Shown one piece after another: positions 30,087 through 45,764 of a stretch of DNA of 64,000 nt (positions are counted from its first letter, which is position 1; every line of letters starts with the position of its first letter). The translations under genes were made by a program, and so were the position numbers. The notes under the pieces were generated by a model, which saw nothing but the letters and a program-made list of their open reading frames with translations, was not told the DNA's origin and made no database searches. The DNA comes from Candidatus Heimdallarchaeota archaeon. Lineage in GTDB: Archaea; Asgardarchaeota; Heimdallarchaeia; Heimdallarchaeales; Heimdallarchaeaceae. Location: NCBI GenBank assembly GCA_030603365.1, contig JAUVXV010000004.1, positions 128,001 to 192,000 on the forward strand. The letters run 5' to 3'.

Positions 30087-30196
30087 TATTAAGTTCTAAA
30101 ACATTATAATTCTAAACTTTTACTCTAGTATTTTAAAAATCTTTAAAGTCATAACATTCTTAAACATTCAAAGTTCATGCTCTTTAGCGAAGCCCA

Positions 30197-30799
30197 ATGA
30201 CTAACTTCATTCAGAATTTCAGACGTTCAATTCGTAGGAAACTAGGCTACCCAGAAGTTTCTATCCTTGTTTTAGGAGATAATAATCCTGCTACTAGGAA
30301 TCGGGCTCTACTAACTAAATCAGAAACATCTCTTAATGAGTTTATCATTGATAACTCTTTAGTAGAACTGCCTTATGCTTTGAACTTTAAATTCAAACAT
30401 AATCTATTTGTTCCATTTGAAGGCTTACTGTATTTCATTGATTCAACAAAAGAAGAAATGATAAAACATGAAAGAAATTTCCTTTGGGAGAAAATCGTCT
30501 GGAATGCTGAAACTCAGAATTTACCTATTGCTCTCTGCGCATATAACTCAAATTTACAAGGAGCATTATCCAGAGGGGAATTAATAGAAAATCTTTCTTT
30601 GATTCGATTAACAGATAGACTCTGGAATCTCTTTGAGACACCAGAAGTGCCATCTATAATTGAAGCACTAAAGTGGCTGAAAAAGGTAATTCATATAGGC
30701 TATGTTAAGTCATGGGAAGAAAAAGAAAAATTATTATTAAAAATTAAACCTGTAGAAATTCAGATCACTACAGAAGAAGAAAATGATCTAGATGTATAA
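30197..30799 (+). CDS. Degenerate Arf-family GTPase-like protein (pseudo-GTPase)
   Basis: Arf-like segments EVSILVLG, GLLYFIDS, LPIALCA, LSLIRLTDRLW and IIEALKWL; P-loop GKT, DxxG and NKxD are all lost. Confidence 0.7.
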   Translation: MTNFIQNFRRSIRRKLGYPEVSILVLGDNNPATRNRALLTKSETSLNEFIIDNSLVELPYALNFKFKHNLFVPFEGLLYFIDSTKEEMIKHERNFLWEKIVWNAETQNLPIALCAYNSNLQGALSRGELIENLSLIRLTDRLWNLFETPEVPSIIEALKWLKKVIHIGYVKSWEEKEKLLLKIKPVEIQITTEEENDLDV

Positions 30800-32401: not shown

Positions 32402-33787
32402 ATGCCCCATCGAATAAATTTCGTAACTGAAGCAGAATTTGCTGATCCATTGCAACACTACAGTAACCAAGAGTTTGTTCTTGAGTTTGAAGATGCTGCT
32501 CAAGTGTTAAAATTATGGCGAAATCCACATTTGGGTAGAAGTTCTCGTGAAGGTGCAGTTTTATCCATTGCTTCTAAAAATGCTGTTGCAGTAGAAAACA
32601 TAATACAGAAAATTATGAATACATACTTGACTGCTGCTGAAGAAGAACGACTAGTTAATGAAATTAAACTCCTTCGTTTTATTGGTGAACGCGTACTTCC
32701 AGATGTTTTGGAAAGAGTAAATCGTAACGAACTTCAAACAGTAGAAGATATTCTAAAGTATATTCAGGAACTTCTGAAGGAAATAAAACATGAAGGGTCT
32801 GTTGACCTTCAACGTTTAGCAGAAAAACTCAATCAACTGAAGGATATTGTAGATATTGAAATTACTGATGCTTTTGGAAGGAAAAAGAGAATCTCACGAG
32901 AAAGTGTCATGGACCTTCTAGGGAAAATCCTCGGTAGATATTTAGTGAAACAAATATCTGTTGCACCAATTGATGAAGTTCAAAAGCGCCCTAGAGGCAC
33001 AATTAGATTAAAAGAAACTTATCGTAGAGCGATATTAAGTTCTCAATCTGTTCCTCCTACTAAAGTGAAACAAGAAGATATAATGAGAGTTAAGAAAGAT
33101 CGTCGATCTTTAGTGTATCTAATTGTTGATATGAGCCAATCTATGCGGAAAAGTGTTTTTGAAGGAGGGATGTCTCGTTTAGATGGGGCACTTCTTACTA
33201 GTCTCAGTTTATACTACTATTTCAAGACACTCAACAGAAGAAAAAGGAAAAGCTATGATATGTTCAAACTTGCTGTTGTTCCTATTAGAAAGAATCCTAC
33301 AGTTATAGATGGTGATAACAACATGGAGCAACTTCTACTCACAGCTGAAGCACGTGGAAAAACATATATGGTTCAAAGCGTTCTCGCTGCGATTGAGCAT
33401 GCAAAAAGTCAATATATAGAGAAAGATATTGACGTTCAGTTCACAATTGTAACAGATGGAATGCCTAATGTGCCTTCTTATCCCTTCAAGCACCGCACAA
33501 ATAAAGAACTCAAGAAGTATTTCGATGAGATTGATACTAAAACTAGACCAAATACTATAGAATGCTTACTACAACTTAACGGAATCTTTTCAAGTTTAAA
33601 GAATGACCGGTCAAGAAACTGGAATGTGTCTTATTTCTTAATGGGGCCAGATTCACTAAGAAACAAGGAAATCTATATACATACCAAAAGAATGCTGAAA
33701 GGAATCACAAGGCCTATATTAGTAGACCCAGCCCAAGTTAGGAATCTTGGAGAACAGATACTAAGGGAGAGTATTTTATATGCTTAA
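32402..33787 (+). CDS. vWA-domain protein (YeaH/CoxE-like)
   Basis: MIDAS DMSQS...T...TDG, preceded by GTIRLKETYRRA. Confidence 0.85.
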   Translation: MPHRINFVTEAEFADPLQHYSNQEFVLEFEDAAQVLKLWRNPHLGRSSREGAVLSIASKNAVAVENIIQKIMNTYLTAAEEERLVNEIKLLRFIGERVLPDVLERVNRNELQTVEDILKYIQELLKEIKHEGSVDLQRLAEKLNQLKDIVDIEITDAFGRKKRISRESVMDLLGKILGRYLVKQISVAPIDEVQKRPRGTIRLKETYRRAILSSQSVPPTKVKQEDIMRVKKDRRSLVYLIVDMSQSMRKSVFEGGMSRLDGALLTSLSLYYYFKTLNRRKRKSYDMFKLAVVPIRKNPTVIDGDNNMEQLLLTAEARGKTYMVQSVLAAIEHAKSQYIEKDIDVQFTIVTDGMPNVPSYPFKHRTNKELKKYFDEIDTKTRPNTIECLLQLNGIFSSLKNDRSRNWNVSYFLMGPDSLRNKEIYIHTKRMLKGITRPILVDPAQVRNLGEQILRESILYA

Positions 33788-35354
33788 AGAAGAACTTGCG
33801 GAGATAATTGTTGTTTATCAAAATGCTCGTGAGGATTTCAAAACTCTTGTAGGAGAAACTCCTGAAAATTATAGAGTTCTTATTTTTCTTGACCCTGAAA
33901 TGCATGTTTCTGTTAATCGAGTGGTAGAGGTCACAGGAACTCCTCAAGCTATACTAACTTCTGAGCAGATAACAAATCTTAGATCTGCAAGGATAAGTGA
34001 ATTTCTTCCTACTGGAAAAGAAACTGTCTATAATTCTCTTCCTACACTAATTTATCTATCAGTACCCTCCTACGAACTAACAATGGAGGAAGAACTGACC
34101 TTAAGAGTGATGCTTATTCATGCTTTTGCTCATGCTCTTATGAATGAGAAAACTGAATCAAATTCAGCGAGAGTTTTGGCTCAACTATATCAATTGGATG
34201 TTATACTCAAGGAACTAATGAGTAACAATGTTTTCCAGTTGAATAAAGTATCAAAAGACAAACATGTTTGGGCTTGGCAGTATTTCCAAGATTTAATTGG
34301 TGTAATAAGATTATTTACAGAAGCAGGTGTGGACGATTTCTATACTCCTCCTGAAGAAGCAAGAAAGTATACTCTGTTCAATAACTTTTCAATTGAAGCA
34401 ATAAATCTCATAGGAGAACGAGCAAAAACTGCAAGAAAGAAACATCTTCACGATATTATAGATGAAGGATTTGCTCATTATATACAACAAAAAGCAATAG
34501 AATACTTGTTAAAGAAAGATGAATACAAGCTTCCAAAAAGACATGAAGATAGATCCATAATATATCCAAATGGATTAAAAGCATTTTTAGCTCCTCCAGT
34601 AGGAGTTTTCAGTCAAGTAGCTATTAACAAACTTCTTACTAAATATAAAGATGAAAAGGAGATGTTTTCTAAATTATTCTCCTACAAATCTGATATAGAG
34701 TTTCTTGAAGAATTTACTTGGGATGAAATAAAGGATTTATTGGCAGTTAACAAAAATGCTCATTCAGAATATGTTGTAGATCATTGGCACTCATCAATAA
34801 GTAGATGGTCAGATATATGGTCTGTCTATGCTTATGGATGGAGGCAGATAGAAGAATACGTAAGTAAAGTTTTCAGAAGAAAATATTCTACTTTTGGTCA
34901 ACTTCTTGATGAAAATCCAAGTATTTCTTTTAAAGGATATGTTAAAGTGGATAACAAGAAAGTATATGTTTTTGAGGCTAATGATTATGGTATTGGAATA
35001 GATCAATTAGTCATTCTTCACAATCATATGTCTCTTTATAGAGATGATTTCAAAACAATTCTTCCTGCTTTTGCTGATGTGATTGTCTTTAAGAAAGTTG
35101 GAGGAATTCATGTTGCTACTTTATTTGCAGTCCACAAGGCCAAGTATAAATCTCTCTCGCCATATAACTTACCAGTTATAACCAGGGCAGTTCAAGTGAC
35201 AAAAAGAAAGGATGCATATAAGTTTGATTTAGACGAGGAAAAGGAAGCAAAATTCGAAATTAGAAATATTGACTATACACATCTCAGAAAGTTGACTCAA
35301 CCTCAACGAGGTGCTATTAGTTATCTAATAAAGGAGGGGTTGTTTGAATTATGA
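33780..35354 (+). CDS. SpoVR/YcgB-like zincin-fold protein
   Basis: ETVYNSLP, HAFAH and IIDEGFAHY parallel SpoVR ELVINSDP, HVxxH and MNEGWASY. Confidence 0.65.
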   Translation: MLKEELAEIIVVYQNAREDFKTLVGETPENYRVLIFLDPEMHVSVNRVVEVTGTPQAILTSEQITNLRSARISEFLPTGKETVYNSLPTLIYLSVPSYELTMEEELTLRVMLIHAFAHALMNEKTESNSARVLAQLYQLDVILKELMSNNVFQLNKVSKDKHVWAWQYFQDLIGVIRLFTEAGVDDFYTPPEEARKYTLFNNFSIEAINLIGERAKTARKKHLHDIIDEGFAHYIQQKAIEYLLKKDEYKLPKRHEDRSIIYPNGLKAFLAPPVGVFSQVAINKLLTKYKDEKEMFSKLFSYKSDIEFLEEFTWDEIKDLLAVNKNAHSEYVVDHWHSSISRWSDIWSVYAYGWRQIEEYVSKVFRRKYSTFGQLLDENPSISFKGYVKVDNKKVYVFEANDYGIGIDQLVILHNHMSLYRDDFKTILPAFADVIVFKKVGGIHVATLFAVHKAKYKSLSPYNLPVITRAVQVTKRKDAYKFDLDEEKEAKFEIRNIDYTHLRKLTQPQRGAISYLIKEGLFEL

Positions 35355-36124
35355 GTTTCCTAGATTTCTTACGCGGATTAACAATAGGAAGAAAACTAAA
35401 AAGTGAAGATCCATTAGATCGTGCATATTTCTCTCTTTTCATACGAAGAAGAGGAAAAGCTAAGGATATTAAAAGAATTTACCCTTTGATTGAGGATTCG
35501 GATTGGAATGTGAGAAATGCAGCAGCAGCTACCATTATAGAATTAGCTTCTAAATATCCAGAAATCAAAAAGAATGTTCTTAATCACCTTCATAATCTAA
35601 TTGAAAATAGCTCTTTGGCAATTAAACTTTCTACTTTGGAAGTTTTAGGTCATCTGAAAGATTATGGTTCAAAACCTTACTTAGTTAAGATTTTGGAAGA
35701 AAGTGATTATGATCTTCAATATGCAGCTATACGCGCAATTGGTTATTTAGATGATGTTGATGTTCTTAATCCACTTAAAAACGTAGTTTATGCAAGAGAT
35801 TATATCACAAGAAGAGCAGCAATACTCTCCGTTGTCAGAATTGCAAATTCAGTTAAAGAGGAAGAACAAGTCGGAAAATTAACCGATCATATGCATATTG
35901 TAATGGAATCTTACCTTGAATTAGAAGAGTTAGGGGAGACTATTTGTAAGATAATGGATTTTGCAGAAGTAGATAAACTACCTGAAATGAAAGGATATTC
36001 AGAATCAGAAATTGTTAAATTGGAAGGATTAATTGAGCAAAAAGATTATAGCGTTGAACTCTACCAGAATTTCGCTAGATTGATTTTTCCTGTATATTTC
36101 CCACTTGATGAGGAGGAAAACTAG
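35351..36124 (+). CDS. HEAT-repeat protein
   Basis: DSDWNVRNAAA, ESDYDLQYAAIRAIG, RDYITRRAAI; ATGA overlap with the upstream gene. Confidence 0.85.
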   Translation: MSFLDFLRGLTIGRKLKSEDPLDRAYFSLFIRRRGKAKDIKRIYPLIEDSDWNVRNAAAATIIELASKYPEIKKNVLNHLHNLIENSSLAIKLSTLEVLGHLKDYGSKPYLVKILEESDYDLQYAAIRAIGYLDDVDVLNPLKNVVYARDYITRRAAILSVVRIANSVKEEEQVGKLTDHMHIVMESYLELEELGETICKIMDFAEVDKLPEMKGYSESEIVKLEGLIEQKDYSVELYQNFARLIFPVYFPLDEEEN

Positions 36125-36814: not shown

Positions 36815-38797
36815 ATGATAATGACACTAGACATTGAGACTCCCTTAAAACCTAGAGGGGATCAACCAAAGGCAATAGAAAAACTAGTTGATGGAATAAA
36901 GAAAGGACATCAAAAACAAACTCTCCTTGGAGTTACTGGATCTGGTAAAACTATGACCATGGCACGTGTTATTGATAAAATAAAGAAACCAACCTTGGTT
37001 ATTGGTCCTAATAAAACCCTTGTTGCCCAGTTGTTTGGAGAATTTAAGACGCTTTTTCCATCAGCAAGTGTTAACTATTATGTTTCCTTTTATGATTATT
37101 ATCAACCTGAAGCATACTTGCCTTCCAAAGATCTTTACATCGAAAAAGATGTAGATATCAATCGCGAAATTGAACGCTTACGACATACGGCTCTTGAAGC
37201 TTTGGCTACCAGGGATGATGTAATTGTTTGTGCTTCAGTGTCTTGTATTTATGGAACAGGTCATCCCGATGTTTATCGTTCTAGACGTATAGCATTAAGT
37301 GTAGGAGAGAATCTTGATCGTCAAGATTTAATGTTAGAATTAGTGAAGAATCAGTATGAAAGAAATGATATCAGTCTTGAACGTAAAAATTTCAGGGTTA
37401 GAGGAGATTCCATAGATATTTTTCCGCTTTATGGTGATTATGTCTATCGTATTGAGTTCTTTGGAGACGAAATAGAACGTTTAACAGCTCGACATCCAGT
37501 CACTGGAGAGAAAATCAAAGAATATCCTCAAATGTCGATTTTTCCAGGTACACAATATCTTGCAAATGATGCTTTCTTCGAATCTGCTTTAGGCGATATT
37601 AAATTAGAACTTGATATGCGTTTAGCTGAATTCCAAAAAGAGGGTAAAGTTGTAGAAAGCCATAGACTAAGACAGAAGACTCTTTATGATTTAGAACTTC
37701 TAAGAGAAACAGGAGGCTGTTCTGGAATAGAAAATTATTCCCGTCACTTCGACAGAAGAAAACCAGGAGAAAAACCCTTTACTCTTCTTGATCACTTCCC
37801 AGATGATTTTCTATTAATTATAGATGAATCACATCTTACAATTCCCCAACTTCATGGTATGTATGGGGGAGATTTTTCAAGAAAAAAGAATCTAATTGAT
37901 CATGGTTTCAGGCTTCCATCAGCAGCTGATAACAGACCTTTTAGATTTGAAGAAACCGAGAAATATATGAGAACTGTTGTTTTTACAAGTGCTACTCCTG
38001 GGCCATATGAACATAAGTTTTCTCAGCAAATTGTGGAACAGATAATTCGACCCACAGGACTTATTGATCCTAAAATAGATGTCAGACGTAATGAAGGGCA
38101 AATACTTGATTTAGTTAGCGAAATAAATCAGAGAGTAGCTAAAGCGGAAAGGGTACTAGTTACTACACTAACAAAACAGAGCGCAGAAATGCTCTCTGAT
38201 TACCTGCTAGAGATGAAAATAAAATCAATTTATCTACATCATGAAGTTGATACTCTTGATAGAATAGAGATATTGAAGGACCTTAGACTTGGAAAGTATG
38301 ATGTAGTAGTTGGAATTAATTTATTGAGAGAAGGTTTAGATCTTCCTGAGGTAGCTTTAGTAGCTATACTTGATGCAGATAAAGAAGGATTTCTAAGATC
38401 GAGGAGATCACTGATTCAACTTATGGGACGAGCAAGTAGAAATGTTCATGGGAGTGTCATTCTCTATGCTGATAAATTGACAGATTCCATGAAACAAGCG
38501 ATTAGTGAAAATAATAGAAGACGAATTATTCAGCAAGAATATAACAATAAGCACGGCATAAAACCTACTACTATTCAAAAAGAAGTCAAATCAATCGTAG
38601 AACATTTGATGCAAGTTACTCCAAAGGAAGAAGAGAAAATAGACGTTCCGGATGGTTTAGCAACTGAAGATATCTTCCTTATTATCGATGATTTAAAAGA
38701 AAGAATGGCAGAAGCAGCAGGAACACTAGACTTCGAAAAAGCTGCTATCTATAGAGATAAAATTAAAGAACTTGAAAAAATGGTGAGCTCTAAATGA
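36815..38797 (+). CDS. uvrB: Excinuclease ABC subunit B
   Basis: GDQP, GVTGSGKT, YDYYQPEAY, DESH, GINLLREGLD, C-terminal UVR domain. Confidence 0.97.
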   Translation: MIMTLDIETPLKPRGDQPKAIEKLVDGIKKGHQKQTLLGVTGSGKTMTMARVIDKIKKPTLVIGPNKTLVAQLFGEFKTLFPSASVNYYVSFYDYYQPEAYLPSKDLYIEKDVDINREIERLRHTALEALATRDDVIVCASVSCIYGTGHPDVYRSRRIALSVGENLDRQDLMLELVKNQYERNDISLERKNFRVRGDSIDIFPLYGDYVYRIEFFGDEIERLTARHPVTGEKIKEYPQMSIFPGTQYLANDAFFESALGDIKLELDMRLAEFQKEGKVVESHRLRQKTLYDLELLRETGGCSGIENYSRHFDRRKPGEKPFTLLDHFPDDFLLIIDESHLTIPQLHGMYGGDFSRKKNLIDHGFRLPSAADNRPFRFEETEKYMRTVVFTSATPGPYEHKFSQQIVEQIIRPTGLIDPKIDVRRNEGQILDLVSEINQRVAKAERVLVTTLTKQSAEMLSDYLLEMKIKSIYLHHEVDTLDRIEILKDLRLGKYDVVVGINLLREGLDLPEVALVAILDADKEGFLRSRRSLIQLMGRASRNVHGSVILYADKLTDSMKQAISENNRRRIIQQEYNNKHGIKPTTIQKEVKSIVEHLMQVTPKEEEKIDVPDGLATEDIFLIIDDLKERMAEAAGTLDFEKAAIYRDKIKELEKMVSSK

Positions 38798-40602
38798 GTC
38801 TTTTCTCTGATCTTGAAGAGATACCGGACGACCCAGGAGTATATTTAATTAAAGATAAAGATGAAAAGGTAATTTACGTAGGTAAAGCCAAGAATTTGAA
38901 GAACAGAGTTAAACAACATTTCCAAACCACCTCTCTTCCAAAAGAAGACAAACTTCAAGAATTAGCTCATAGAGTTAATTGGTTTTTAGTAAGAAATGAA
39001 TCAGAGGCATTGATTTTAGAGAGGAAATTGATAAGACAACTATCTCCTAAACTTAATAGCATGCTAAAGGACGATAAGTCTAATTTACTTGTTAGAATAA
39101 CTATGGAAGATACATTCCCTCAGATACTTATTGTTAGAGAAACAGATTCACGTGTAAGTAAGAGTGTATACTTCGGTCCTTTTACTAATAACACGATGCT
39201 CAGACAGACAGTTAAATTGGTTTTAAGGTTATTTCCAATATGTAACTGTGGTAAAAATTTTGAAAGAATCAGAGAAAAAGGTTCTACAATTCGATGTATG
39301 CGGGCAAGGTTGGGAAGATGTTTAGCTCCTTGGAAGAACGATATTACTTCAGAAGAATATCGAAAAACAGCCAAAAATGTAATTTCTTTTCTCAGGGGAG
39401 ATGTAGCTCAACTATTAGATAATATTGAAAAAGAGATGTGGGTAGCTTCAAAGGATTCAAATTATGAAAAAGCAGCATCTTTACGAGACCTCACTCGAGC
39501 TGTACGTACAATTTTGAATATTCAAGAAGATCTTAAATCTGTAAGAAAGAATGTAGATGTATTGGCTTATATTGAGGAAGAGGATGACATAGCTTTCTGC
39601 AAATTAGAAATTAGAGCGTATCGCATACATAACATCATGAACGATGTTTTTCCAAAAGAGGACGGGAAGTTAAAGAAACTAGGTGAAGTGTTAGCATTTA
39701 TTTATGGTCAAGAAAAACCAAAATTTTCAATTTTACTAGATAAGAATTTTACAAATCGTTTTAAAATAAATATTGAATTACCCATAAAATATCCTACAAA
39801 CACTGTTTCAGAGCAATTGTGTAAGATAGCAGAAAAAAATGCTCGTAGTGAGATGCAGAAATATAAACGAGATGTTCAATATCTGAAAGAATCCGAAAAT
39901 GTTCTAGAGGAAATGCAGAAACAATTTCAGCTATCAGACTTACCTGAAATCATTCACGGGTATGATATTTCTACTCTCGGAGGAGAACATTCTGTTGGTT
40001 CCTGTGTTGTTTTTCAGAATGGTAAACCTCAGAAGAAATTATATAGACGTTTTCGAATTAGAAAAACCTATTCTGAACCAAATGATTATGCAATGATGGA
40101 GGAAGTTATTTCTAGAAGATATAAGTCTGAGGCTTTGAAAAATGATCCTTCACCTCAATTACTTATCATTGATGGTGGAAAAGGACAACTAAATATTGCT
40201 ATTAAGGTACTAAAAAAACTCAAAATTGATGTACCAATTATAAGCATCGCTAAGAAGAAAGAGGAAATCTATACTAAATGGTCAGATGACCCCCTAAGTA
40301 TTGAAAAAGATTCTAGTGTGCAACGTTTAGTTCAATATGTGCGAGATGAATCACACCGTTTTGCAATTAATTACCATAAGACATTGAGATTAAAATCAGT
40401 TAAAGATTCTGCCTTAGAAAAAATAAAGGGAATAGGGAAAGCTAAGGTTTCAATGCTTTTTCAAGAATACAAAAATCTACAAAATATATCTAATGCAACA
40501 AAAGAGGAAATTATGAAGAAAATAGGTGTAAACGAGGAGATAGCAAAACAGGTCTTATCCATGACTCAAAAAATTCTGAAAAAGAGCCCATACGATGATT
40601 AA
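38794..40602 (+). CDS. uvrC: Excinuclease ABC subunit C
   Basis: GIY-YIG (PGVY...YVGKA), YDIS, DGGKGQ, RDESHRFA, HhH. Confidence 0.95.
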   Translation: MSLFSDLEEIPDDPGVYLIKDKDEKVIYVGKAKNLKNRVKQHFQTTSLPKEDKLQELAHRVNWFLVRNESEALILERKLIRQLSPKLNSMLKDDKSNLLVRITMEDTFPQILIVRETDSRVSKSVYFGPFTNNTMLRQTVKLVLRLFPICNCGKNFERIREKGSTIRCMRARLGRCLAPWKNDITSEEYRKTAKNVISFLRGDVAQLLDNIEKEMWVASKDSNYEKAASLRDLTRAVRTILNIQEDLKSVRKNVDVLAYIEEEDDIAFCKLEIRAYRIHNIMNDVFPKEDGKLKKLGEVLAFIYGQEKPKFSILLDKNFTNRFKINIELPIKYPTNTVSEQLCKIAEKNARSEMQKYKRDVQYLKESENVLEEMQKQFQLSDLPEIIHGYDISTLGGEHSVGSCVVFQNGKPQKKLYRRFRIRKTYSEPNDYAMMEEVISRRYKSEALKNDPSPQLLIIDGGKGQLNIAIKVLKKLKIDVPIISIAKKKEEIYTKWSDDPLSIEKDSSVQRLVQYVRDESHRFAINYHKTLRLKSVKDSALEKIKGIGKAKVSMLFQEYKNLQNISNATKEEIMKKIGVNEEIAKQVLSMTQKILKKSPYDD

Positions 40603-42812: not shown

Positions 42813-45764
42813 TCAGACTATTGCTCGTAACTCTTGAACAATTTCATATTTCATTTGTTTTCTTATAATTGGTATCATTCCAAGTAAAGCTGCAAGACAT
42901 AGTGACGCAAGGATGATAAAAAGCGCCACAACATCGATGTGGATATTCAATATTATAACCTCTTTTGCAATTAATAAAGGCTTTACAAAAAGCAGAGAAA
43001 ATGCTGTAGCTGCTATACCTAATGGTACTCCTATTAAAACGGTAATTAATATAAAAGTCGATACCTCACTAATAAGTAGCCCTCTCACTTTCGTTTGATT
43101 TCCACCTAGTGCAAGTAAAACTGCATTTTCTCTTCTTCTTTGTTCTAATATGAAATCAGTTGAGATAAGAATGTAAATAATTCCAACTACATTGAGTATA
43201 ATTGCCCCAACAAGAAGGATAATTGTTACTGGGGGGATATATTTATCGATGAAATAACCAATATAATCGGGATTAATCTCTTCAGGGTTGACAGTTAAAA
43301 GCGGAAATAAACTCTCTATTTCTTGTTTGATTTGATTAGGATCAGCTCCTTCCTCTATTGAAGCTAAAAGAAGAGATCCGTTATGTGCATCCAATTCATC
43401 AGTAAGTACGTCTTTATTCAAAAGAACCCAATCATCAGTATCTCTATTCATCTTGGGATCATAACCATGTGCAACACCCAAACCTGGAGCCGATTGAATA
43501 ACTCCTGTGATAGTTAAACTCTGTATTTGTCCAGATCCAGTAAAACCCGAAACTTCGATTTCTTCACCTATAATAAAATCTAGCCTGTTAATCAAATAAC
43601 TACTAATTATAACTCCTTTCGCAGTGTCATTGAGTGTCAGAAGACCTTCTGCTGGGGTCATATTGATAAAACTCGAATCCGTCCACCTCCCAATTTCTAA
43701 AAATTTATCGGGATCAACACCAAAAACTTCAATTTGTAGTTGAGTTCCCCACAATGCTCTTATTGTTCGAAAACCTGTAATTTCTTTAATACCCTCAATT
43801 TGCCCAAGTGTTTCTTCCATTTCAGAAATGTTTACCGGTATAAGAGAATCAATTCGAATGTCTGCCCCCATTCTATACAAATCTTCAATATCATTGTTGT
43901 GGATAACAGAAGATCTCATGGTTACTAACATAGTAAGAAGGCTTACGGTTAATACTAAGAAGAATGTAAGATCTGTAAGATTTTTAGTGTGACGTTTAAG
44001 GTTTTTAAGAATCAAGAATGAATTTTTCTTGAATATAACTTTATAGACCTTTCCAAGTTTCTTGATTAATTTATTTATTCCTTTTGAAATGAAATAACAG
44101 ATGAAGAATAGTAGACAAATGAATACTAGTAGAGCTTGAATACTAACCGAAACCATACTAAAACCAAAACTGGAAACTCCTCCTACTTGTTTGAAATATT
44201 CAATCAATAGGAAAATGAAACCCGCTAAGATTAGTACAAATGAACCAACTGTAACACTTGTTTTGATTATTTTCTGACCTCTCTTAGTCATTATCTGTGA
44301 TTCGTGAATATCCTTCCTAACAAAATTTATGACATTAAAAAGCGTTATACTCAGATATATTCCCAGAACTAGGACCGTAAAAATCTCTATTTCATAAGGA
44401 GATATCTCTAAATAACTGAAATATCTATTGAATAATTCTTTACTAAAGAATCCATCATGACCAAAAGATGGAATTAAAGCTGACAATAAGATACCTATTC
44501 CAATACTCAAAATTAAAGAAATGCTACTAATCAGAACGAATTCTCCAAAAAACATTCCTATAATTTGGCCACTTACTGCACCTTTGGATCTTAAAAATGC
44601 AATTTCCTCTTTTCTTTTTTTAACAGTCATTTGTGTTGATAAGATTGTAAGTATTATTGCTATTGCAATTGTAGGTACAAATACGACAGTTGACCCAAAA
44701 CTTCTGGTATATTCATCTGCCATTGCTTGAATTTCCTGAGAAAGAATAAAGGCGAATGCATGCCAATATCTAAATTCTATTCTTTCTTTTAGCGCATACA
44801 TGGTATCGGGCATATTAGATATTCCATTCTTCCTTAATTCTTGTCCATTTGCTTTAACAAGCAATTTGGGGAGCATTCTATTAGCATCCATAATGCTAAG
44901 ATCCTCTGTTTGTAAATCTTCTATTGGAAAGAAAATTGAATCTAGAAGAACTCCTCCAGTATTTCCAAACCCTCCAAGCATTCTAGCGATAACGGTATTC
45001 TTGCCAACATAGGTGTAAATCCCAGAAATAGTATAATTTTCAAATATGGTTTCACTGATATCGTAGGACTGCATGGTCGTTTCCTCACGATCTGTATAGG
45101 GGATGTATCTAGTAATTGCAACACTAATTTCATCTCCAGGGGATATAGTTTTATTATAAACAACTTCAAGCTGTTTTGCTTGGAAATAACTTATCATTAG
45201 CTCTCCTTGATTTAATGATGCTTGACCATCAACCTCTAAATTCAGCTTAATTCTTTCCATTGCTGCAGAAGATACAATGTGTGCTGCCGATATTGATAAC
45301 GGATTGTTCATGTCATCTTGTTGATCCTCTGGAAACCACGTGTAATTATCCGCCTTATCTTCAAAATTAAATAGTGCAACAGAAGGATAATACCAATGCA
45401 CATAGTCTACGAGGGGATCATCAAGCACATATGTAAAAATTGGTTGCATCACACTGGGGAGGAAAGTTGAAACATACATCTCATAATCTAATGTCTGTAA
45501 ATAATCATCTGCGATGATTTTTTGTGATGTGCTCGACCATATTGATGCAGTAAAAAGAACTGACATTGAAAAAACTAAACCTAAAATGATTATAGTGATA
45601 CTTCTTCTCCGATTTGTAATGTTCTTCCAGATTAATTTGATATTAAAGTAGAAAGAAGCAACTGCTTTTTGATATCTGGTAGTTTCTTCTTCCTCACTAA
45701 CGTAGTTATCTAGTTCATTCACCAGATTCACCTCCAACAAGAAATTGAAAACTTTCTTTATCAT
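42813..45764 (-). CDS. FtsX/MacB-like ABC transporter permease
   Basis: Duplicated RKEEIAFLRSKG / RRRENAVLLALG FtsX motifs; likely true start GTG 45722 behind GGAGGTGA. Confidence 0.88.
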   Translation of the reverse strand: MIKKVFNFLLEVNLVNELDNYVSEEEETTRYQKAVASFYFNIKLIWKNITNRRRSITIIILGLVFSMSVLFTASIWSSTSQKIIADDYLQTLDYEMYVSTFLPSVMQPIFTYVLDDPLVDYVHWYYPSVALFNFEDKADNYTWFPEDQQDDMNNPLSISAAHIVSSAAMERIKLNLEVDGQASLNQGELMISYFQAKQLEVVYNKTISPGDEISVAITRYIPYTDREETTMQSYDISETIFENYTISGIYTYVGKNTVIARMLGGFGNTGGVLLDSIFFPIEDLQTEDLSIMDANRMLPKLLVKANGQELRKNGISNMPDTMYALKERIEFRYWHAFAFILSQEIQAMADEYTRSFGSTVVFVPTIAIAIILTILSTQMTVKKRKEEIAFLRSKGAVSGQIIGMFFGEFVLISSISLILSIGIGILLSALIPSFGHDGFFSKELFNRYFSYLEISPYEIEIFTVLVLGIYLSITLFNVINFVRKDIHESQIMTKRGQKIIKTSVTVGSFVLILAGFIFLLIEYFKQVGGVSSFGFSMVSVSIQALLVFICLLFFICYFISKGINKLIKKLGKVYKVIFKKNSFLILKNLKRHTKNLTDLTFFLVLTVSLLTMLVTMRSSVIHNNDIEDLYRMGADIRIDSLIPVNISEMEETLGQIEGIKEITGFRTIRALWGTQLQIEVFGVDPDKFLEIGRWTDSSFINMTPAEGLLTLNDTAKGVIISSYLINRLDFIIGEEIEVSGFTGSGQIQSLTITGVIQSAPGLGVAHGYDPKMNRDTDDWVLLNKDVLTDELDAHNGSLLLASIEEGADPNQIKQEIESLFPLLTVNPEEINPDYIGYFIDKYIPPVTIILLVGAIILNVVGIIYILISTDFILEQRRRENAVLLALGGNQTKVRGLLISEVSTFILITVLIGVPLGIAATAFSLLFVKPLLIAKEVIILNIHIDVVALFIILASLCLAALLGMIPIIRKQMKYEIVQELRAIV

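Follow-up and report, generated by a model that had tools for sequence, protein, structure and literature searches.

A five-gene cluster led by an Arf-like reading frame

The window analysed here is a 64,000-nucleotide stretch of DNA from Candidatus Heimdallarchaeota archaeon (family Heimdallarchaeaceae; contig JAUVXV010000004.1, positions 128,001 to 192,000) with a G+C content of about 34 %. At positions 30197..30799 on its plus strand lies a gene (P0001) for a 200-residue Arf-derived pseudo-GTPase, henceforth pseudo-Arf, an identification that draws on the open reading frame, a Pfam Arf match, hhalign, an AlphaFold2 (AF2) model, VIA-align and the ratio of nonsynonymous to synonymous substitution rates (dN/dS). 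The frame runs uninterrupted from its ATG through its stop codon. A first-pass annotation, made from the sequence alone, had likened the product to Arf, and every segment that it quoted was located at the expected residues: MTNFIQNFRRSI (1-12), EVSILVLG (20-27), GDNNPATR (27-34), EGLLYFIDSTKEE (75-87), LPIALCAYNSNLQGALS (109-125), LSLIRLTDRLW (133-143) and IIEALKWL (154-161). Residue 2 is Thr, as expected from its claim that a Gly2 for myristoylation is missing. The nearest database proteins, 41 clusters at 60-94 % identity, come from metagenome-assembled genomes of Candidatus Heimdallarchaeaceae; in NCBI records, some carry the name 'ADP-ribosylation factor-like protein' and others are called 'hypothetical protein'.

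Four genes follow on the same strand. [quoted passage not shown] The vWA gene overlaps by 8 bp the gene for an orphan protein of 524 residues (33780..35354), which in turn overlaps by 4 bp the gene for a HEAT-repeat protein of 257 residues (35351..36124). Upstream, an AT-rich divergent spacer of 110 bp (30087..30196) separates pseudo-Arf from a NUDIX gene on the minus strand. Judging from a reading of its sequence, this spacer is the probable promoter region of the operon, with a TATA-like TTTAAAAA about 58 nt 5' of the pseudo-Arf ATG.

Pseudo-Arf is an Arf homologue predicted to keep the Arf-type fold

Arf (PF00025) is the sole Pfam family matched by pseudo-Arf; the match, over residues 70-163, reaches 25.9 bits and so exceeds the gathering score of 22.3. 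A phmmer search against all PDB chains returned 74 distinct sequences at E<=10; the 60 of these that were listed are all Arf or Arl proteins, including the 'GTP-binding protein' chains 8OUM/8OUN, which are GerdArfR1, and the best matches are structures of the Asgard protein HodArfR1 (8OUK/8OUL, E 8e-6). When the search was made with a profile from motif-less family members alone, Arf/Arl chains were again matched exclusively, down to E 1.4e-9. Using hhalign, a pseudo-only profile of 33 sequences (A3) was aligned with a profile of 13 bona fide Asgard Arf-related proteins (ArfRs; A8), which gave a probability of 98.6 % and an E value of 1.2e-15 over 150 columns. The alignment spans residues 16-169 of pseudo-Arf and residues 12-183 of L026, a bona fide ArfR with a full set of motifs that is encoded in the same genome. 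Pseudo-Arf is an Arf homologue, and the resemblance is statistical rather than seen by eye only. The end-to-end alignment with Arf proposed in the first pass stands for the profile-profile comparison, which covers the whole G domain, and for the structure model, but not for plain similarity at the level of hidden Markov models, which does not extend beyond the C-terminal half (residues about 67-167); for the N-terminal half, the alignment comes from profile-profile comparison and structure model only.

An AF2 model was computed from a 49-row alignment of 36 motif-less members from five GTDB families and the 13 true ArfRs, and reached a predicted local distance difference test score (pLDDT) of 86.9 and a predicted template modelling score (pTM) of 0.81. 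Its N-terminal part consists of an N-terminal helix (2-15), β1 (21-28), α1 (31-43), one strand (49-56) and an ordered non-regular stretch (57-75), and its C-terminal part of β4 (76-82), α3 (86-101), β5 (111-116), α4 (126-132), β6 (143-147), α5 (151-168) and an extra helix (173-183). In a Foldseek search of the PDB, GDP-bound HodArfR1 came out on top (E 1.7e-9, prob 1.00, TM 0.63/0.67), followed exclusively by Arf/Arl entries. VIA-align superposed 140-148 residues on ScArf2, Arf6 and Arl6 (Z 18.4; root-mean-square deviation 2.0-2.2 Å), and its best 50 entries are all Arf/Arl. Pseudo-Arf is predicted on this basis to keep a small-GTPase fold of the Arf type; structure prediction and Foldseek, which were to expose a protein of another fold, found an Arf-type one, so that the refutation named in the first pass fails.

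The model departs from Arf at precise places. The interswitch hairpin and the switch II helix of Arf are the elements that couple the nucleotide state to exposure of the N-terminal helix. In place of Arf's β2-β3 interswitch hairpin, DSSP assignment of the model gives only the single strand at 49-56, which lies between α1 and β4; α2, the switch II helix, is missing. Past the G domain, model secondary structure and pLDDT delimit a C-terminal extension (30701..30796, plus strand), in which the extra helix is followed by an acidic tail of low confidence; G168, K171, W173, K176, E177 and L179 of this extension are invariant in the close family.

Loss of the nucleotide-binding motifs

We scanned 65 family sequences with regular expressions, a set made up of 42 close homologues (P0001-P0042), more distant representatives and 13 orthologues cut from other genomes. 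No GxxxxGK[ST], no correctly placed DxxG and no [NT]KxD at G4 was found in them, whereas the true ArfRs in the same searches carry P-loop, DxxG and NKxD, all three. The hhalign columns show what stands in place of each motif. At G1, GLAAAGKT(T) of the genome's true ArfR is matched by GDNNPATR(N), and with the flanking residues GLAAAGKTTL by GDNNPATRNR, the degenerate P-loop position of pseudo-Arf (residues 27-36, 30275..30304, plus strand). About 11 residues of switch I are absent, including the PTIG threonine region; at G3, DVAGQ is replaced by ELPYA. At G4, NKQD is replaced by YNSN (residues 116-119, 30542..30553, plus strand), a position on which hhalign and MAFFT alignments agree; Y116 and N117 do not vary within the close family. 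ETPE stands at G5 in the aligned columns. The degenerate G1, the shortened switch region without DxxG and the YNSN at G4 had all been called in the first pass, and columns, scan and the absence of α2 from the model uphold them. The exact site of the main deletion is uncertain, because, with different sequence sets, MAFFT moves a deletion of about 11-15 residues between switch I and switch II; hhalign assigns most of it to switch I.

With the P-loop, the switch I threonine region, DxxGQ and switch II, NKxD, G5 and a strand of the interswitch hairpin gone, pseudo-Arf most likely binds no guanine nucleotide and most likely cannot act as an Arf-type switch, as far as sequence and model can tell. 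Another kind of binding is conceivable at the former P-loop. T33, R34, N35 and R36 are invariant in 27 close homologues and fall at the position of the ArfR P-loop Lys-Thr, and pseudo-Arf might bind a nucleotide or another anionic ligand non-canonically through this TRNR at the start of α1. We hold this to be improbable, since TRNR is not conserved in the orthologues of four other families of the class (f7, f4, f3 and f2, see below), no equivalent of G4 or G5 is present for base recognition, and deletion or replacement has removed switch I and switch II.

The same stretch varies in f4. Some of its orthologues (P0047, P0048, P0065 and L024:7716-8357) keep a 'VGKT[SA]' string after β1 and others have VGNT, IGQA or TGRA there. 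Going by sequence, the string may be what is left of a decaying P-loop Gly-Lys-Thr, or may have arisen by chance.

A conserved family under purifying selection

Pairwise dN/dS of pseudo-Arf by the Nei-Gojobori method has a median of 0.095 (range 0.03-0.29) over 36 usable orthologue pairs, and the adjoining AAA+ gene has a median of 0.072. Pseudo-Arf is under purifying selection and is a functional gene. Its loss of all catalytic motifs is also what a decaying, non-functional remnant of an ArfR would show, a reading to which we attach next to no probability: a decaying pseudogene is ruled out by the dN/dS, by reading frames that are intact in about 55 genomes from five families, by 50 positions that are invariant among the 27 close homologues and by the kept position in the operon.

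W97, W102, L124, L135, R137 and D140 are invariant in all 33 members of the wider pseudo-family, and G27, E131, S134, R141 and W160 nearly so. The residues conserved family-wide sit in α3, the α4-β6 loop and α5, on the side that faces away from what were the switch regions. Within the α4-β6 loop, SLIRLTDRLW (residues 134-143, 30596..30625, plus strand) serves as a family signature, in which L135, R137 and D140 are the invariant and S134 and R141 the nearly invariant positions.

A single clade that travels with an AAA+ gene

We surveyed 83 genomes of the class Heimdallarchaeia, among which f1 denotes the window's own GTDB family, Heimdallarchaeaceae. Full-length orthologues of pseudo-Arf occur in 29 of the 30 f1 genomes, and f7, f4 and f2 have orthologues at 30-38 % identity. 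A still more reduced Arf-like member of 158-170 residues was detected in f3 by the family profile (L042:1492-1965 in G034, L044:1372-1881 in G032 and L045:1378-1863 in G033). No pseudo-Arf was found in f5 or f6, and the proteins that matched best there are ordinary HodArfR1-type ArfRs, their motifs complete. A search of 1.84 billion representative proteins gave no more than 29 matches at E<=0.001, the intermediate ones also being motif-less, and a wider protein search with the family profile gained just two clusters.

The phylogeny with Asgard Arf-related proteins that had been proposed as a check was run as a maximum-likelihood tree. In it, a single branch with a support of 100/100 divides the 36 motif-less sequences from the 13 true ArfRs, and the subclades of the motif-less sequences track the GTDB families. 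This single branch and the family-wise subclades fit one ancient loss of the motifs in the ancestor of part of the Heimdallarchaeia, followed by vertical descent, on a tree with long branches and limited ArfR sampling.

The AAA+ gene, itself lineage-specific, has a matching distribution. It is present in f1 (29 of 30 genomes), f2, f3, f4 and f7, and was not found in f5 (0/22), in f6 (0/2) or in 190 genomes of 22 other Asgard families. Every Heimdallarchaeia family that bears it has motif-less Arf orthologues, and the single f1 genome without pseudo-Arf (G008) is also without the AAA+ gene. Of the 55 genomes with the AAA+ gene, 45 have pseudo-Arf directly upstream of it in the same orientation, and tblastn on the fetched loci recovered all five genes in identical order in f1 and f7, and partly so in f4. 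Pseudo-Arf is co-inherited with the genes for the AAA+, vWA, 524-residue orphan and HEAT proteins, usually as the first gene of one operon. In f3, the reduced Arf-like gene is unlinked from the AAA+/vWA cluster, and a membrane protein adjoins the cluster upstream.

Pseudo-Arf could instead have no part in the work of its operon neighbours and serve as a decoy for, or compete for, the regulators or effectors of the genome's true ArfRs, with the linkage reflecting co-regulation only. The bona fide ArfR in the same genome would suit this, as would the genomes of f2, f3 and some of f4 in which pseudo-Arf is unlinked from the AAA+ gene. We nevertheless judge it very improbable, because the switch regions, which are the parts recognised by guanine nucleotide exchange factors (GEFs), GTPase-activating proteins (GAPs) and effectors, are the parts that were lost, and because the presence or absence of pseudo-Arf tracks the AAA+ gene and not the ArfR genes, f5 and f6 having ArfRs without pseudo-Arf.

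The other proteins of the operon

Among nine orthologues of the AAA+ protein, Pfam matches to Sigma54_activat were found in all nine, to AAA_5 in eight and to Mg_chelatase in three, and its language-model neighbours are archaeal families of Mg_chelatase and AAA_5 (0.97, with 215 of 256 features in common). These matches and neighbours lead us to assign the protein, on its sequence, to the ChlI/MoxR-type, helix-2-insert clade of AAA+ ATPases. Its Walker A motif is GPTGEAKT, with Ala at the second Gly position, and its Walker B motif VVNE, with Asn for Asp; between the two lies an insert of about 115 residues that contains Cys (CPFLED ... CPYC). The Walker motifs and the features of the Cys insert are invariant in nine orthologues from across the class.

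The vWA protein matches VWA_2 in seven of nine orthologues and VWA_CoxE in three, and its MIDAS residues (DxSxS...T...D; D243, S245, S247, T321 and D352) are invariant. A profile search of the PDB gave only a generic match for it, to the TRAP vWA domain, and nothing significant for the AAA+ protein or the 524-residue orphan. The orphan has no Pfam, NCBIfam or PDB sequence match; it is syntenic across the class at 35-70 % identity and carries a HAFAH motif. The HEAT-repeat protein, likewise syntenic across the class, matches HEAT_2 with 84 bits and Adaptin_N with 24.1 bits, the latter below the cut-off of 37.

We also considered the PrkA/YeaH/SpoVR triad as a model for the operon. It was rejected at the sequence level: none of AAA_PrkA (PF08298), DUF444 (PF04285) and SpoVR (PF04293) matched an operon protein at E<=10, and the probabilities that hhalign returned for E. 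coli YeaG (2.6 %) and YeaH (0.2 %) are negligible, for which reasons the triad reading was not adopted. The PADLOC defence models gave no meaningful match.

Beyond the operon, after about 690 bp, lie uvrB (660 residues) and uvrC (602 residues) at 36815-40602, which have strong NCBIfam matches and are unrelated to it. Further on, the minus strand encodes at 42813-45764 a protein of 983 residues with two FtsX-like permease domains.

A probable subunit or client of an AAA+/vWA machine

We consider it probable that pseudo-Arf is an Arf-derived, nucleotide-independent subunit or dedicated client of the AAA+/vWA machine that is placed on the membrane in Heimdallarchaeaceae. In characterised MoxR/vWA couples, the AAA+ ring serves as the docking site of the vWA protein, whose MIDAS holds an acidic residue of the target, and the ATPase then remodels the target (PMC9976466). 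Pseudo-Arf would join such a machine of the ChlI/MoxR type as a fixed subunit or dedicated client, independently of nucleotide. The partner would be bound by the surface that α3, the α4-β6 loop and α5 make up and that bears W97, W102, E131, S134-L135, R137, D140-R141 and W160, and the invariant D140 or the nearly invariant E131 would be the candidate acidic ligand for the vWA MIDAS, as in the MoxR/vWA couples. In Heimdallarchaeaceae, the N-terminal helix would place the complex on the membrane, either constitutively or under control of the AAA+ protein, and not under GTP control.

This helix (residues 2-16, 30200..30244, plus strand) is cationic and amphipathic, as the model and its hydrophobic moment indicate: over residues 4-14 the moment (μH) is 0.98 (z 2.6 against shuffles) and the net charge +4. 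Membrane association without myristoylation has been reported for Asgard ArfRs, and the helix of the Heimdallarchaeaceae proteins, on sequence and model, would fit such an association. The amphipathic helix is conserved in f1 only and is absent from the f7 and f2 orthologues, and membrane targeting therefore cannot be the role of the whole family; membrane anchoring would be lineage-specific at best. These results support the first-pass proposal that the protein is no nucleotide switch but an Arf derivative with a scaffold or membrane-targeting role. An Arf-type fold that has lost all motifs in a conserved and selected family fits it, and the conserved five-gene operon gives the scaffold reading a concrete partner; membrane targeting as a family-wide function falls away.

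A motor-driven switch is another reading, in which pseudo-Arf would be a client that still changes state, the AAA+/vWA motor replacing control by GTP, GEF and GAP with ATP-driven remodelling, for example by exposing or retracting the N-terminal helix. MoxR/vWA couples do remodel a specific target held by the MIDAS (PMC9976466), conserved D140 and E131 lie in an exposed loop region, pseudo-Arf is tightly co-inherited with the AAA+ gene, and f1 has retained the helix. Yet the interswitch hairpin is reduced to one strand in the model and the f7 orthologues are without the helix, and we regard such a switch as unlikely, though deserving of real weight. A more speculative version, which we think more doubtful still, would pass the on/off cycle of the Arf fold from the guanine nucleotide to the AAA+ protein, with a ChlI/MoxR-type hexamer gripping the nucleotide-free Arf by way of the vWA MIDAS, an ATP-driven cycle of conformation and membrane state, and the HEAT and orphan proteins as cargo or a coat-like layer.

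Several observations weigh against pseudo-Arf as a nucleotide-independent part of the AAA+/vWA machine. Its link to the machine proteins is drawn from genomic operon evidence, and pseudo-Arf and the AAA+ gene are unlinked or divergent in f2, f3 and part of f4 (g13). No fused pseudo-Arf/AAA+ form and no longer form of pseudo-Arf was found, which is weak evidence. Neither the helix at the N terminus nor the acidic tail is conserved beyond Heimdallarchaeaceae, and the invariant T33-R34-N35-R36 at the former P-loop could mark a new ligand site. On the structural side, AF2 on the 27 close homologues alone gave a poor model (pLDDT 48.5), with which Foldseek found nothing at E<=0.001 and a weak list headed by Arf, Arl and SRβ; the 13 true ArfRs in the larger alignment may pull the N-terminal half of the model towards the Arf fold.

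Relation to known systems

The nearest sequences and structures to pseudo-Arf are the Asgard ArfRs HodArfR1 and GerdArfR1 (8OUK/8OUL/8OUM/8OUN; bioRxiv 10.1101/2024.02.28.582541). They share with it the G-domain fold, the length, an ELW-type motif in α3, the archaeal class and an N-terminal amphipathic helix without a myristoylation glycine, but they bind GTP/GDP and possess GxxxxGKT, the switch I Thr, DxGGQ and NKQD, motifs that pseudo-Arf is without. Another parallel is CENP-M, a Rab-like kinetochore component that lost its nucleotide motifs and kept the G-domain fold as a structural subunit of a larger complex. CENP-M is found among the language-model neighbours of pseudo-Arf (score 0.88, a lead only); it differs in being eukaryotic and without a detectable specific sequence relationship, pseudo-Arf being archaeal and Arf-derived.

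In pairing a helix-2-insert AAA+ protein with a vWA protein of intact MIDAS, the operon resembles NorQ/NorD, CbbQ/CbbO, RavA/ViaA, CoxD/CoxE and BchI/BchD, and AAA+/vWA pairs of the MoxR/ChlI type remodel or mature a dedicated target (PMC9976466). It differs from them in the Cys insert of about 115 residues and the GxxxxAKT / hhhhNE Walker motifs of its ATPase and in the additional orphan and HEAT proteins, and no described MoxR/vWA couple includes a protein of the small-GTPase fold, as far as our literature search showed. With PrkA(YeaG)/YeaH/SpoVR(YcgB) the operon shares the order of an ATPase, a vWA-like protein and a third large protein; its ATPase, however, is without the kinase-like C-terminal half and groups with Mg_chelatase/AAA_5, so that at most a very remote homology is possible.

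Searches of the literature on Asgard Arf, archaeal pseudoGTPases and MoxR/vWA/small GTPases brought up no account of a pseudo-GTPase derived from Arf in archaea, nor of one linked to an AAA+/vWA operon. The preprint of Vargová et al. mentions unannotated, divergent Asgard GTPase sequences, which may include such motif-less Arfs; accession and motif look-ups in the accessible part of its supplement gave no match. Pseudo-GTPases and Asgard ArfRs were both known before, and what is newly described here is an archaeal, Arf-derived pseudo-GTPase with an AAA+/vWA operon.

Implications

Pseudo-Arf adds a prokaryotic, Arf-derived member to the pseudo-GTPases, which are otherwise mostly eukaryotic as far as the searched literature shows, and it cautions that not every Asgard protein annotated as 'ADP-ribosylation factor-like' is a switch. 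The operon offers a concrete five-protein complex for testing. Should an AAA+-driven Arf cycle exist, it would be a Heimdallarchaeia-specific alternative to the eukaryotic logic of Arf, GEF, GAP and coat. Research on the Arf-family GTPases of Asgard archaea looks at them as potential precursors of membrane trafficking in eukaryotes; in the class closest to eukaryotes, one Arf lineage would long ago have become a nucleotide-free structural protein tied to an ATP-driven AAA+/vWA/HEAT module.

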